In this document: positions 19,784 through 26,382 of the stretch, piece after piece
Numbering within the stretch: the stretch's first letter is position 1
How the letters are laid out: each line of letters begins with the position of its first letter
NCBI GenBank assembly: GCA_963711565.1
Contig: CAVQEQ010000002.1
Coordinates: 128,001 to 192,000, forward strand
Direction: 5' to 3'
DNA from: an uncultured delta proteobacterium
GTDB taxonomy: Bacteria; Desulfobacterota; Binatia; Binatales; Binataceae
Length of the DNA: 64,000 nt
Made by a program: the position numbers and the translations under genes
Notes under the pieces: model-generated
Told to the model about the DNA's origin: nothing
What the model saw: the letters and a program-made list of their open reading frames with translations, nothing else
Databases searched by the model: none

Positions 19784-20713
19784 ATGCACGTATCATTCAG
19801 GCATGCGCGACGCGTGGTGCTGGGCGTCGCGGTGGGGGCGCTGTTACTCGCTGCTGCACCGGATTCCGGTCACGCGGAGATTCTTTCCATCTGCGTATCG
19901 CCGCATGGACAGAAGATACTTCTGCCGCTCGGCGGGACTTGCAATGCGCCGGACCGGCAGCTCACGTGGGATAGCGGCGGCGTCACCGGCCCAACCGGGC
20001 CGCAGGGTCCCGCCGGTATGCAAGGACCAGCAGGACCGACCGGCCCTTACGGTGAAGCTGGGCCGCAGGGTGCTGTGGGACCGGCCGGCGTGATCGGGCC
20101 GGTTGGAGACGTTGGAGCGACTGGTCCGGTCGGACCGGCCGGAGAAGTGGGTCAGCAAGGGCCGCAAGGGCCGACTGGACCGACGGGCGCTACAGGCCCG
20201 ACGGGACCGACGGGATACCACGGAGTTAACGGCATCAACGGGGCCCAGTACTACACGCTGGGCGGCGGCAACCTGGGCAGTAACGCCTCGCTGCTCTTCG
20301 GCTACAAGAATACTCTCGCGGGCACGAGTTCCACGGTCGGGACCAACCCGATTTTCTACGGTCCGGGCAATGGCGCCGACACGCAACTCGAGAGTGAAGC
20401 GGTGCCAATCGACGCTTCGGTCGCGACCCAACTCTGGGTGCAGACCACGAATGCGCCCGGTGCGGGACAGACCTATTCGTTTACTCTGTACGATAATACC
20501 AATAGCACCTATGTTTCGTGCACGATTGGTAATCCGAGCAGCAGTTTCCCAACCCTGACCGAGTGCAACGATTTGGATGACAGCGCCAGCTTCAGCGCCG
20601 GCGACACGATCGCTCTGAAGGCTACGGCAACCGACGGAGCGGCGCCGACAGAAGTGAAGTGGCTGGTGGTGATGCACCAGACTGGCGGCACTGGCGCGCC
20701 GCTTTTGCCATGA
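19784..20713 (+). CDS. Secreted collagen-like protein A (30 Gly-X-Y triplets)
   Basis: GGGAGG RBS, signal peptide ending GHA, two-Cys N-domain, collagen tract 19979-20248 and a beta-rich C-domain. Confidence 0.9.
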   Translation: MHVSFRHARRVVLGVAVGALLLAAAPDSGHAEILSICVSPHGQKILLPLGGTCNAPDRQLTWDSGGVTGPTGPQGPAGMQGPAGPTGPYGEAGPQGAVGPAGVIGPVGDVGATGPVGPAGEVGQQGPQGPTGPTGATGPTGPTGYHGVNGINGAQYYTLGGGNLGSNASLLFGYKNTLAGTSSTVGTNPIFYGPGNGADTQLESEAVPIDASVATQLWVQTTNAPGAGQTYSFTLYDNTNSTYVSCTIGNPSSSFPTLTECNDLDDSASFSAGDTIALKATATDGAAPTEVKWLVVMHQTGGTGAPLLP

Positions 20714-20783
20714 GTCGCCGATATAGGGGTGCGGAAAAATGCTGACGAGTACGCGAATGGTAACAGTCAGGGAGGGGACGAGA

Positions 20784-21848
20784 ATGCCTCAATCTTTTAA
20801 GAACGCGTGGCGCTGGCTCGTCGGAGCATCGGCGGCTGCGATGCTGATAGCGAGTATCTCGCCGGCGGCGAATGCGCAGACGCCGGATACCGGGGTCATC
20901 AGTCTGTGCGTGGCCCGGAGCGGCAAAATCATCGGGATAAATATTCACTGCAAGCCCCATAACTTCCAATTGACGTGGAATATCCCGGGGCCTGCGGGTC
21001 CAGCCGGGCCGCAGGGCTATACCGGACCCGCTGGCGCGCCGGGCGCGCCGGGGTTGACGGGATCGGAAGGCCCCGTGGGTGCAGTGGGACCTACCGGACC
21101 AATGGGAGCCTTGGGTCTGACCGGTCCTGAGGGTTCGCAAGGCGTGACGGGTCCGACAGGTCCGACGGGTAATACTGGGTTCCCCGGACCAACCGGGCCG
21201 GTCGGCGCTATCGGATTGACGGGAGCTTCCGGCGTGCCGACCTTTCCCGTGGGCTGCACTACCGCAGGCTGCAATGACCAAGTCGAGATCCTGAGCGGCG
21301 GGACGCTCGGTGGAACTATCGGCGATCAAGCGGCAATCCAGCTGACCGTAAACTCCGGCTCTGGCGGAATCCCGACCACCCCGCTCTACATGGGACCGGG
21401 CAACGGCGCGTCGGGACAAGGCATTACCTCAATTCCTCCTGCCCCGGTGGCAGGGCCGCAAACCAGCGTCGAAGTGCCAATGCCGGGCGGCACAGCGTTC
21501 AATATGATTGTTTCGATCACACCGACCGGTGCGGGTCCCGTCGGCAGCGCATACGAATTCGTCGTCTGTAATGGCACGCTCTCCGGCACGGGCGAACCGG
21601 GGGACTGCGACTTTGCGACCAATCCTTTCCCATTCGACACGGCCCCGGGCTGCTTCATCGCGCACTCCATCCCGACCCCGAATCCGCAGGTGTGCACGTC
21701 TAATACTTCGGGAGGCCCGCTGACCTTGACGTTCAATCCGGGCGACCCTCTTTCGATTATGGCTTACAGCTCTGAAGCCAGCACGACCGACACCGTCAAC
21801 GTAAGCTGGTCGATGGACTTCGCGATCAACACGGCGGACGCCTTCTGA
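20784..21848 (+). CDS. Secreted collagen-like protein B (28 Gly-X-Y triplets)
   Basis: GGAGG RBS, signal peptide ending ANA, collagen tract 20988-21239 and a C-domain paralogous to A and C. Confidence 0.9.
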
Positions 21849-21936
21849 TTTGCGGTACGCGAGGAGGAAAAAACACATGAAATCGCGATCGGAAGTCAGC
21901 ACGGCTGGAGGGGAACAGAAAATGGAGGGCGTGAAC

Positions 21937-22881
21937 ATGCCTGCTTCGTTTAAATCGGCGTGGCGTTGGCTGGTCGCTGCGACCGCCGCTACGATACTCT
22001 GCCTGGCGGCGCTTCCAGGTGTAGGCCGGGCCGAGAATATTGAGATCTGCATCAATAATAACAACGGCAAAATCAAAGGCATCAACCTCGGCGTCGGCGG
22101 ATGCACCGGGAATCGAACCGAACTCGACTGGGTGACGACTGGACCGGCCGGACCCACAGGCCTTCAGGGCGTAGTCGGCAATCCCGGACTTGCCGGTACG
22201 CAGGGACCCCCGGGATCGCCGGGTGCCGCGGGACCTGCGGGAGCGCAGGGAGCAGCAGGACCGGACGGCCCCCAAGGCGTCGCTGGCCCGACCGGACCGA
22301 CTGGCCCAGCGGGAACAATGGGTGAAGACGGAATCCGCGGAGTGCCCGGAATTGCTGGTGCGACCGGAGTGACCGGACCGTCCGGAACTCCAGGCATCCA
22401 GCAGCCGAATATATCGGTCTTCACCGGTGGCTCGATGGGCACTTTCGGGAGCCCCTCGGGAGGCCCCTACAACGTCGGATTGTCCGGGAACAACAGCGTC
22501 ATGGCCAACATCCTGGTACTCGGACCCGGCAACGGTTCGGATACGTCCCAGGCGACCGAAGTGCCGATGTCTGAAGGGGGGACTGCGGAACGCTTGTTCG
22601 TCGCCGTAGATAACGATCCCGGAACCCAGATGAATAACGGGATCCCGAGCACGTTCTTCTTCTTCCTGTGCGACAACAACTCCTTCCCTGCGGACTGCAA
22701 CGTTGCCTGCTTCATGTCGGGACCCGACACGACTTGCAGTGACCTGACGGATACACAGGTGTTCGCTGCGGGCGACTCTATGAGTCTATGGGCGTTTGCC
22801 AGCTACCCCGGGGCGAATCAAGCAGACGTGAAGTGGTCAGTGACTTACGACCACGGCGCACCTATCGCACCTCCAATCTGA
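21937..22881 (+). CDS. Secreted collagen-like protein C (29 Gly-X-Y triplets)
   Basis: GGAGG RBS, signal peptide ending GRA, collagen tract 22141-22401 and a paralogous C-domain. Confidence 0.9.
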
Positions 22882-22907
22882 GCTATGAGTGCTGAATGTT
22901 GAGACCG

Positions 22908-22941
22908 AAAACCCCCGGATTAAACTCCGGGGGTTTTTTTT
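22908..22941 (+). terminator. Rho-independent terminator closing the collagen operon
   Basis: AAAACCCCCGGA-TTAAAC-TCCGGGGGTTTT hairpin with a T8 run. Confidence 0.9.
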
Positions 22942-23109
22942 AAGGAGTTAACGAGTATTAGAGCCCCTGTACGCATTGTTTTAGTCTGTATCTGAGGTTA
23001 TTGTTCACGCGCGGGGGGAGAGCTTCTACGTGATCGACGGGGAGCGACGATCACATTGTACTGCGACATATGTGGACTCGCAGGCTTGTCGGAAAAGGAG
23101 GATTTTCCG

Positions 23110-25311
23110 GTGAAAGTGCAGCCCAGCTTGACTTTCCGTCACCAACGAATCGCCCAGGAAAACACCTGGGGACCAACCCTTGCAATCTTTGCCTCCGCGT
23201 TGCTGGCACTTGCGATGACTGGCTCGCAGAGCGCGTGGGCTTTCAACGTCAAGAACGCAAGGCTCGTCGATAAAGGATTCAAGGTTTTCACCAAAGAGAC
23301 CTTCAACGGTAACGGCCGTACCTGCTCAACCTGCCACATACCCAAGGACGACTACACAATAAGCCCTGCGGATCTTCCGACGCTGAGCGCGCATGACAGG
23401 AATCTTGTGTTTGCGACACACAATTCGCAGCTCGAAAACCAGACCCTGGTAAATCAGTTCGCTATGTTCAACATCACTAACGACACCCCTGGTGCTAGCG
23501 GAACCGGTACGACACCTACCGGTCCGTTCCGCGCCTCGATGCAGCTTAGCGGCTTGGCACTGACCACGCTGAACGACTGCCCCAACGCGACCGTGATTGC
23601 GTCGGCCACCGATACCGGCCCCACCGCCCAGATTACAACCGCTACGCCTCCCACCTTTCCGTTTGCGCTAAACGAGGAGGTGAGAGTCGAGGGGGTCAGC
23701 GTCGCCGGCTACAATGGAAGTACGTTCGAGATCTCGAGCGTGATCAGTCCCACGACATTCCAGTACACGACGTTGACTGGCGCCGCGATCACCGGACTCC
23801 CCTCAGTAGGGCCCGGCGGCGGCGTCAGCGGGCTGCCCACTCCACCAATTACTACGACGGGGTCGGGAGCGTGTTCGACTGCACCTAATTTCGTCACGAC
23901 GCCGACCACCACGGGCACCCGGTTCATAGAGCTCGGCTGGGCGGGAGATGGCGCACCCCTGGATCCCACGCTCTTCGAAGTAGGCAAGCCTCGCGATTAC
24001 GCGGATTGCGTCGCCGCCGTCAATAACGCTGACGCCAACCAGAACGTTCTCAGCCCGGTGTTGAATGCGTTCTCGACCGGCGCCGTCAGACACCATTTTG
24101 CGCGCACCAATGCTCGCGTGCCCGGAAAGGATTTCCGTTGCCCAACTCCCGCTGAGCAGAATGCGCTCACCGCGTTTCAGGAGTACCTCGGGCGCCAATT
24201 CCCCTCTGGCACACCTCTCGAACTCGCCCTGGAAGCAGGGACAACGTTCCCCGGGACACAAGTCAGCTCTGTGCAACCCGTGGTCACTTTCAATGACTCC
24301 ACGGCGGAGACGGGCAAGGCCATCTTCCTGAATCCGAGCGCGTCCTGCAATTTCTGCCACTTCAATGCGGGCGCAAGCATGAGTACAACCCAGGTAAAAA
24401 CGGAGCCGTTGGGAGATCCACCGCTGCCGTTCCCCGGCCGCAACGAGAACAACTCGCAACTCGTGAACATCCTGACCAACACCAGCTTTATTATTCCGTC
24501 AAGCGGACAGACGGTTACCGGCGGACTTGATGGCTTGACGCCGGTGACAGTCGGCACGGACCCCGGCGACGGAAATCCCTTCAGCGACAAGCACGGTGGG
24601 TTCATCCCGGTATTCAACGTCCAATCAATCATAGAAGCGCCGCGAAAAAAGAGCTTTTTCCACAACGGCGCTTTCAATACCAGCGTGGAGGACGCGGCGT
24701 CGTTCTACTTTGGCAACCCCACGGTTCAAACTTCGGGTAGCACGCTCATCACGCCCGGTTTCGACCTCGCCAACGGCAACTTCGCGATTGGCACTAACCA
24801 GGATGGCTCGCCGGTGACCCTCGCGCCCGGATTGCCGAATCCCCTGCCAAGAGCATCGGGACAACAAACCGGCACTCAGGCTCTTGTGGCTCTTGCGGGC
24901 ACCTACTTTCCTGGCGATTCGGTGTCAGGCAACGTGCTGACTTCGCCGGGCGGGCAGGACGTGCTCAACACGCTTGGCTTCTTCCTGAGGGCGCTAAACG
25001 TGGTTTACAGCATCGCCGATTGCGAGCGGCTGGTGGACGATACGGTCAGCCGTCTCGATGCGGGTTTGCCGACTGAGGTGCCGATCCTCAACTGTACCAC
25101 GGACTTGGGCGATGTAGACCGTGTAATTGCGGGCGCGCGCGTGACCGTGCCGGACAACTACGTCACCGTCCAGATGCAGGCTCAGAGCCTTCAGGGCGAG
25201 TTGAAGAAGTACGCGAACCAGCACAATCGCGCGAAGCTCATAGGAGTTATTAATCAGCTACAAGCCATGAGAAGCTCGATTGCATCGATCTCACCCGACC
25301 TGTCGGAGTGA
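23110..25311 (+). CDS. Secreted dihaem cytochrome c, bCcP/MauG superfamily
   Basis: AGGAGG RBS then GTG; signal peptide ending AWA; GNGRTCSTCH (CxxCH at 23323-23337), LGWAGDG, GKAIF...CNFCH (24346-24360) and FFHNG...FY. Confidence 0.8.
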   Translation: MKVQPSLTFRHQRIAQENTWGPTLAIFASALLALAMTGSQSAWAFNVKNARLVDKGFKVFTKETFNGNGRTCSTCHIPKDDYTISPADLPTLSAHDRNLVFATHNSQLENQTLVNQFAMFNITNDTPGASGTGTTPTGPFRASMQLSGLALTTLNDCPNATVIASATDTGPTAQITTATPPTFPFALNEEVRVEGVSVAGYNGSTFEISSVISPTTFQYTTLTGAAITGLPSVGPGGGVSGLPTPPITTTGSGACSTAPNFVTTPTTTGTRFIELGWAGDGAPLDPTLFEVGKPRDYADCVAAVNNADANQNVLSPVLNAFSTGAVRHHFARTNARVPGKDFRCPTPAEQNALTAFQEYLGRQFPSGTPLELALEAGTTFPGTQVSSVQPVVTFNDSTAETGKAIFLNPSASCNFCHFNAGASMSTTQVKTEPLGDPPLPFPGRNENNSQLVNILTNTSFIIPSSGQTVTGGLDGLTPVTVGTDPGDGNPFSDKHGGFIPVFNVQSIIEAPRKKSFFHNGAFNTSVEDAASFYFGNPTVQTSGSTLITPGFDLANGNFAIGTNQDGSPVTLAPGLPNPLPRASGQQTGTQALVALAGTYFPGDSVSGNVLTSPGGQDVLNTLGFFLRALNVVYSIADCERLVDDTVSRLDAGLPTEVPILNCTTDLGDVDRVIAGARVTVPDNYVTVQMQAQSLQGELKKYANQHNRAKLIGVINQLQAMRSSIASISPDLSE

Positions 25312-25373: not shown

Positions 25374-26382
25374 CTACTTCAGACGCGGCAGCACTTCGGC
25401 GCCAAATCGGTCCAACGAACGCCGCGCCTTGGCGGGATCGAGACCCGGCAATTGCGTGACTACGATCAGCTCGGTCATCGGAGTTGATTCCAGTATCTCT
25501 TCGAGGCGTGCGGCGACGTCGGAGGCCGTGCCCAGCACGCTGGTGCGTCGCAAGCGCTCGGGGTCGGGACGAATCAGCACCTTGCTCTGATCGGTCGTGC
25601 CGGCTGCGGCCGAGAGCCATTTACCGTACAGCTCGGCCTGGTACATGAGCGCGTCGCGCGTGTCGCGCCACGCATCCTCCTCGCTGTCGGCGACGTAAAC
25701 CACGCGGCTATTGACGATGCTGTATCGCGCGGCGTCCTTGCCTGCCGCCTTCAACGCATCGAGATAGATTCCGATTTCCCGGCGTCCCCCGACGCATGCG
25801 AATCCCATATCGAGCTGGGCGGCGCGCCGAATCGATTTCGCGGCGCCGGCGCCACAGCAATTCGGGATGCGGCCGGCTCATCGGGCGCGGCAGTACGCGC
25901 ACGTCGCGGAACTTGAAATACTTGCCGTCGAAGCTGAACCGTTCGCCGGTCCACGCCAGCTTGAGAATCTCGATAGTCTCGAGCGTGCGGCCGAGTCGCT
26001 GTGGGCGCGGCACGCCGAAGCCTTCGAACTCCTCGGCACGATAGCCCAGCCCAATCCCGAGCCGCAGCCTGCCGCCCGAGACCACATCGACGAACGCGGC
26101 GTCCTCGGCCAGCTTCAGCGGATGAAAGAACGGCGCCAGTAGGACGTAGGTGCCGATAGTGACGCGCGTCGTGCGCGCCGCGATAGCAGCAGCCGCGGGC
26201 ATCAGCGCGGGCAGGTAGCCGTCGTCGGTGAAATGATGCTCGGTGAGCCAGATGGAATCGAAGCCAAGCCGCTCAGCCGCCTCAACCTGCGCGAGCGATT
26301 CGCGATAGAGCTCTTGAAACGAAATCTTCGAGCCGGGCGGATTTCGGAAATCGAGCTGATAACCGACCTTGACCTTGCGCAC
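25374..26382 (-). pseudogene. LLM-class flavin-dependent oxidoreductase, frameshifted near 25852 (pseudogene or sequencing error)
   Basis: GFDSIWLTEHHF, HPLKLAEDAAFVDVVSGGRLRLGIGLGYR; the sequence continues in another frame as GAGAAKSIRRAAQLDMGF...FGAEVLPRLK. Confidence 0.8.

Follow-up and report, generated by a model that had tools for sequence, protein, structure and literature searches.

Three tandem genes of an uncultured delta proteobacterium of soil (Binataceae) encode predicted secreted collagen-like chains A, B and C, which on the evidence of sequence very probably assemble 1:1:1 in one collagen triple helix. The genes lie in a stretch of 64,000 nucleotides, the window. Co-assembly was proposed in an initial annotation made from the letters of the window, and three observations now argue for it: the tract lengths co-vary, the genes form fixed trios, and Lys pairs with Asp or Glu across the chains in the order A-C-B. 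A wider reading, held with good but lesser confidence, is that of a natural, obligate ABC-heterotrimeric bacterial collagen independent of animals. Its register would reside in inter-chain salt bridges, and chain choice would be made by a new trio of jelly-roll heads that could bring any three collagen sequences into a set register in a bacterial host.

The architecture described in the initial annotation was recovered in all parts (Table 1). Each chain comprises a predicted signal peptide, a two-Cys N-domain and an uninterrupted Gly-X-Y tract, which begins four residues past the Trp of an L-x-W motif. The distance from tract start to the GGxxG motif is 95 residues in A and C and 103 residues in B, and the head motifs common to the three chains were seen in an alignment. 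A single N-terminal hydrophobic stretch is present per chain and no second, in agreement with the proposed lack of a transmembrane anchor. Lipobox and LPxTG are absent from A, B and C according to a motif scan, which also yielded no VPEP motif. The collagen repeat (PF01391) matches the tracts at 50.8-56.2 bits (cut-off 27.2) and was the only family found in a Pfam scan of the three proteins. The C-TTAG-C loop is present in the B linker of the window, but was not seen in those B linkers of relatives that were compared. The terminator closing the gene series was missed by a program terminator scan and found by folding.

Table 1. Features of the collagen trio; positions are those of the window, or residues of the protein (aa)
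Feature	Position	Strand	Description
Gene A (P0001)	19784-20713	+	309 aa; predicted leading chain, register carried over from orthologues
Gene A, predicted signal peptide	aa 1-31
Gene A, two-Cys domain	aa 32-65
A collagen tract	19979..20248	+	30 Gly-X-Y triplets; Pfam Collagen 50.8 bits
A head	20249..20710	+	predicted beta jelly roll, two Cys; AlphaFold2 pLDDT 89.7 and fold searches
Gene B (P0002)	20784-21848	+	354 aa; predicted trailing chain, register carried over from orthologues
B collagen tract	20988..21239	+	28 triplets, then longer linker with C-TTAG-C
B linker and head	21240..21845	+	head profile
Gene C (P0003)	21937-22881	+	314 aa; predicted middle chain, register carried over from orthologues
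C collagen tract	22141..22401	+	29 triplets
C head	22402..22878	+	head profile
Intrinsic-terminator-like hairpin and T run after C	22907..22941	+	22907-22938 folds at -22.5 kcal/mol, into eight T

The genes A, B and C likely form one operon. In four RNA runs, drawn from three studies, contigs match parts of A, B and C; many of them are identical or nearly so, and one contig bridges B to C. Contig ends near the hairpin (X1 at 22882, X2 at 22917 and X4 at 22901) are a weak hint of termination; the runs X3-X7 had small word shares. The RNA contigs are compatible with an expressed operon. In-frame ATGs are located upstream of the starts of B (20739) and C (21877). In the window's clade they are usually preceded by a purine-rich site of their own, and some 35 bases before B are nearly invariant (gaps 20714-20783 and 21849-21936). 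These upstream ATGs could serve as dual starts or in translational tuning.

Apart from those of A, B and C, a six-frame scan of the whole genome found collagen tracts at one place only: contig C3 carries another trio, with the same layout and 23/23/22 triplets. The length-matched layout is therefore more than chance. A gene with polymorphic-membrane-protein repeats (L001:9183-11117) lies directly upstream of this second trio on the same strand. A profile built from 48 heads was searched in genus, family, class and phylum-wide genome sets. It matched 35 of the 47 genomes of the genus: three matches occurred in 26 genomes, six in the window's own genome (two trios), four in three genomes, two in two and one in three. 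The genomes with four matches comprise two cases of split heads and one duplicated C; those with two comprise one contig edge and one middle gene missed by the profile. Heads were present in 46 of 165 genomes of the family (6 of 30 genera), in 52 of 401 of the class and in 2 of 401 of a phylum-wide draw. Matches outside the family were weaker and scattered and, by their coordinates, formed no adjacent trios; few of these loci were fetched.

Homologous loci are mostly trios in a fixed gene order with co-varying tract lengths, and the heads are predicted jelly rolls; on these points, the refuting conditions named in the initial annotation were checked and did not refute co-assembly. Loci of other copy number exist as well. 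The same head also occurs in lone homologues (G006, G024, G015 and other families), so this fold is probably able to form homotrimers. Duplicated C genes are present in G168 and G005, and probably in L185; the copies belong to class C and keep the C length (43/43). A B or C without partners was always explained by a contig end, a frameshift or a partner missed by the profile. In six genome loci, one chain is broken by a single-base frameshift, probably a sequencing error. The trio likely arose within the family via triplication of a lone, presumably homotrimeric gene. Locus L039 of G006 holds three further, loosely spaced collagen genes, two with distantly related heads, whose interrupted tracts are unmatched (30+62, 30+51+11 and 74+43+40), in natural contrast to those of the trios. 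Another type of trio (L046:3927-7914) shares the two-Cys N-domain and has 21/21/21 triplets with beta-propeller-like heads of 43-58% identity; it is possibly an independent three-chain collagen.

The trio usually occupies one chromosomal slot. A divergent GrdB-like gene is located upstream in 26 of the 47 loci examined, and monooxygenase-region DNA downstream, also in 26 of 47. A dihaem gene at 23056-25311 of the window, whose product is predicted to be secreted and has two CxxCH motifs but no Pfam match, was rejected as fixed partner; it follows the trio in only 6 of 47 loci. A luciferase-like monooxygenase at 25374-26382 is split into two overlapping reading frames, probably by a frameshift. 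No exporter, anchor or hydroxylase gene is prominent among the recurrent neighbours, with Pfam applied to the neighbours in the window.

Tract lengths are tightly coupled within loci. Tracts of 35 genome loci range from 22 to 86 triplets, while the spread within a locus is 0-3; trios include 23/23/22, 27/24/25, 29/27/28, 30/28/29, 36/36/35, 44/44/43, 54/54/53, 60/60/60 and 86/86/85. Independent contrasts on a tree from concatenated heads gave r of 0.996-0.999 for these loci, and of the 16-17 non-zero contrasts 15-16 agreed in sign. The underlying table was entered by hand. It gives interrupted tracts as totals, reads A of G014 and G050 through a one-base frameshift, and does not count a 32-residue loop carried by B of G018. 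Omitted from the table were loci split over contigs (G005 and G010) or lying at a contig edge (G043 and G170), G057 with a frameshift in B (46/46/45 if read across), G061 with its B head missed (37/36/35) and one trio of G166, the first, in which A has a Gly substitution and B and C have 18 and 19 triplets. From 80 metagenome loci, 27 distinct trios with all three tracts were obtained. The tracts differ by at most two triplets in 26 of them, the exception being L170 with 24/29/28.

The spacing from tract start to GGxxG is often residue-identical across the chains (74/74/74, 92/92/92, 95/95/95 and 137/137/137), with B up to about 20 residues longer via its linker. Equal spacing is reached from different triplet counts: A combines 30 triplets with 5 residues, C 29 triplets with 8. 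Changes affected all three chains together in the 29/27/28 lineage, with a one-triplet loss at the C-terminal end of each, and in G051 (L076), where the two-Cys N-domain was lost from all three genes. In the G009-type clade the breaks do not coincide: A is interrupted 8 triplets from the end and C 12, and B is unbroken. A role of the tract as periplasm-spanning ruler was rejected, because tract lengths vary about fourfold.

Seven triplets correspond to about one superhelical turn. Trio lengths show steps of 30-46-54-86 (multiples of 8) as well as 23-30-44 and 29-36 (multiples of 7). In expanded trios of two separate clades (L075, L080, L041, L049 and L084), A, B and C alike mostly have 8 triplets as their best internal period, against 6, 11 or 2 in lone homologues.

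The three genes represent separate lineages. Heads within a locus are 23-40% identical and cluster by gene position, requiring 6 label changes against 64 for shuffled labels in a quick tree (129 heads) and 3 against 30 in a careful tree (62 heads). Within the window's clade, each of A, B and C is recovered as monophyletic (99-100) and their subtrees match; deep branches have weak support. Tract similarity amounts to 0.064 within a locus and 0.067 between different chains of different loci, and tract expansions are made of gene-specific repeat units.

A length match fits one mixed helix or three equal homotrimers, and inter-chain charge pairs were tested for this reason. According to PMC11923368, a Lys at position i of a triple helix bridges to an Asp or Glu of the following chain at i+2, whereas a Lys of the trailing chain reaches an acid of the leading chain at i+5. 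Y-position Lys were scored against Asp and Glu under this i+2/i+2/i+5 rule, and 27 chain compositions were compared. The order A-C-B (A leading, C middle, B trailing) was chosen post hoc on the genome loci and then fixed for held-out metagenome trios that were fetched later. Under this order, 19 of the 26 Y-Lys in the 34 genome loci have a partner, as do 31 of 36 in the 27 held-out metagenome trios. The held-out trios share lineages with the genome set, and much of the pair count comes from a few inherited sites, mainly A4K-C5D. A-C-B ranked first of the 27 compositions in both sets, with a runner-up of 19 in the metagenome set. The homotrimers AAA, BBB and CCC pair 1, 4 and 1 Lys in the genome set and 1, 3 and 4 in the metagenome set. 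After reduction to one locus per Lys pattern, 19 of 24 Lys were paired against a null expectation of 2.5, and none of 100,000 shuffles scored as high. A same-chain Lys-Gly-Asp/Glu, the i+2 bridge of a homotrimer, was found at only 5 of 61 Lys.

All five Lys of L174 are paired in this order, across A-C, C-B and B-A junctions (p 2e-5). G019 contains five pairs (shuffle p 0.003), the best of six orders. C5D is present in 12 of 12 genome loci with A4K and in 2 of 8 without it, and both A9K and C10D are found in G007 only. A pair A39K-C40D occurs in another genus (G071). G051, aligned by hand from its head, retains the A-Lys/C-Asp pair at an unchanged distance from the heads despite the loss of the N-domain. 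Shifting C by one triplet reduces the pair sum from 18 to 7 or less. Each set leaves five Lys positions without a partner, among them A12 in three loci of a distant clade, and 10 of 14 further loci are devoid of Y-Lys in the first tract. The trio of the window has no Y-Lys, and its register was therefore carried over from orthologues.

Three other explanations were weighed. The length match might stem from recent triplication or gene conversion without any physical coupling. Tandem paralogues can homogenise in general, but the heads belong to old, position-specific lineages, the expansions use gene-specific repeats, and tracts within a locus are no closer than those of unrelated chains, which led to the rejection of gene conversion as the cause. 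This explanation appears largely refuted by head lineages, contrasts and tract comparison, and is close to untenable. Three homotrimers, whose rods would match in length because they stand side by side in a bundle or a uniformly high coat, are very unlikely. They would accord with the description of prokaryotic collagens as homotrimers in PMC8968730, with the lone homologues and with the breaks misaligned between chains in one clade. Separate rods, however, predict neither the residue-exact spacing from differing triplet numbers nor cross-chain Lys-acid pairs at intra-helix distance on all three junctions, where same-chain bridges are rare.

In the remaining alternative, A-C-B is one of several trimers, formed besides A2C, AC2 and homotrimers by non-obligate mixing, and combinatorial tips result. 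Compositions with A followed by C score 16-17 in the genome loci against 19 for ACB, and the duplications of C would suit such mixing. In the held-out trios, ACB reached 31 against 19 for the next composition, though, and the duplicates retain class and length of C; the partnerless B and C genes are accounted for by contig ends, frameshifts and profile misses. Such non-obligate mixing is considered improbable. The A-C-B heterotrimer is preferred.

Head A is predicted as a beta jelly roll (Table 1). TNF and C1q domains are its best Foldseek matches among solved structures, at weak scores (4-1BBL, E 4e-4, TM 0.40). VIA scored the TNF/C1q match of head A at Z 7.6 with an rmsd of 3.3 Å over 114 residues, tied with unrelated jelly rolls of up to Z 8.4. 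Stronger structural matches were obtained with phage and Klosneuvirus collagen-associated domains (TM 0.6-0.7). The gC1q family (PF00386) had no match in A, B or C at E <= 0.1, PHROGs and NCBIfam contained no family for the heads, and no Pfam family scored above cut-off across the head repeats of the 33 multi-head chains scanned.

A sequence search with the heads yielded 4,863 matches. Among the best 150 of these, 120 are multi-head chains, comprising 108 with three, six with six, four with two, one with four and one with seven copies; the ranking favours multi-copy chains, though not the number three. One three-head chain folds with pTM 0.92. Since multi-head chains are mostly three-copy and one folds in this way, three divergent heads probably form one unit. 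In Foldseek, this three-head model has C1q/TNF trimers of the single-chain type as its first five matches (E 1e-9 to 2e-6), but at TM of about 0.24 and an rmsd of about 22 Å. VIA aligned 5hkj to one domain of the model over 111 residues and gave no whole-trimer superposition on any solved chain (best Z 5.1-5.2). No one-to-one correspondence was seen between the heads of A, B and C and the successive repeats (1, 2 and 3) of single-chain proteins; an origin of the trio by simple fission of a single-chain three-head gene is accordingly not supported. P0008-P0157 represent a large unnamed family of proteins of about 400 aa with three tandem jelly-roll copies, whose look-alikes in the Atlas are mostly from phages. 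P0083 combines a collagen tract with two heads.

A pathway of assembly can be proposed. The chains would be exported by Sec with cleavage of the signal peptides, and disulfides would form within both end domains. The two Cys of each N-domain are more simply read as an intrachain pair. The heads would then pick one A, one C and one B; chain selection is placed in the heads because one lineage (G051) lost the N-domain from all three genes. From there the helix would zipper toward the N-domains in the A-C-B stagger. With the collagen rise of 0.29 nm per residue, the product would be a rod some 25 nm long. Three different jelly-roll heads would make up its asymmetric end and would most likely act jointly as a binding tip. 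Four secretin genes are present in the genome, so a route for folded export may exist; none is linked to the trio locus. A binding function is suggested by the variable loops of the heads and by their relatedness to viral fibre domains. Provided that the trimer is real, a role as unanchored adhesin or extracellular matrix fibril, with an asymmetric, loop-variable tip for a surface ligand, is somewhat favoured.

If the heterotrimer is confirmed, chain selection and stagger evolved also outside animals. Dozens of natural variants of about 19 to 86 triplets would be at hand, with a chain order readable from sequence. They would offer a short, likely hydroxyproline-free system and new chain-selecting domains for heterotrimers made in bacteria. 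The salt-bridge test is transferable to other candidate trios. A literature search, with most subscription papers outside its reach, found no report of the trio family or of a natural prokaryotic heterotrimeric collagen. For Pasteuria, a heterotrimeric collagen is raised only as a possibility in PMC7743900.

C1q of vertebrates is composed of A, B and C chains encoded by tandem genes, and its stalk has a kink. The trio resembles it in a likely three-chain composition and in layout, with a short Cys-containing segment at the N-terminus, a stalk of collagen and a predicted jelly-roll head at the C-terminus. Evidence at the sequence level indicates that the trio consists of three distinct co-encoded chains sharing one register. 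The name C1q-like, used in the initial annotation, is therefore justified for layout and chain logic; it does not extend to the heads, which have no PF00386 match and a TM of only 0.34-0.44 to C1q domains. The tracts in the window are uninterrupted and kink-free, and breaks occur in a distant clade. In C1q, only the three-peptide mixture of the stem folds, and the molecule has A-B and C-C interchain disulfides and an 18-chain bouquet, according to PMC11869133. Trio and C1q are almost certainly of independent origin.

BclA-type proteins (Bacillus BclA and F-BclA, C. difficile BclA1-3) share with the trio an N-domain, a Gly-X-Y stalk rich in Gly-Pro-Thr-type triplets and a C-terminal jelly roll; the F-BclA CTD aligns with head A at Z 7.0 and an rmsd of 3.2 Å over 107 residues. 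They are spore proteins, whereas the trio carries predicted Sec-type signal peptides and consists of three co-evolving genes. For BclA1-3, AlphaFold3 supported homotrimers and not heterotrimers in a 2026 test on C. difficile (PMC13188886). The best structural match of the trio head is the collagen-associated jelly roll of phages and giant viruses, many of whose sequence matches are three tandem copies. There the copies share one collagen-free chain or belong to a lone collagen gene, while the trio distributes them over three collagen genes.

Streptococcal Scl1 and Scl2 and Legionella Lcl are homotrimers encoded by single genes. Like the trio they are exported bacterial collagen-like proteins, but their NCBIfam models match over the tract only, with scores of 31-58 bits against cut-offs of 325-500, and the LPXTG anchor of Scl is absent from the trio. 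The review PMC8968730 ascribes a homotrimeric helix to prokaryotic collagen-like proteins. By sequence, the trio departs from this description, with 1-4 pairs for homotrimers against 19 and 31 for A-C-B. It is a prokaryotic collagen-like protein and not a member of the C1q family.
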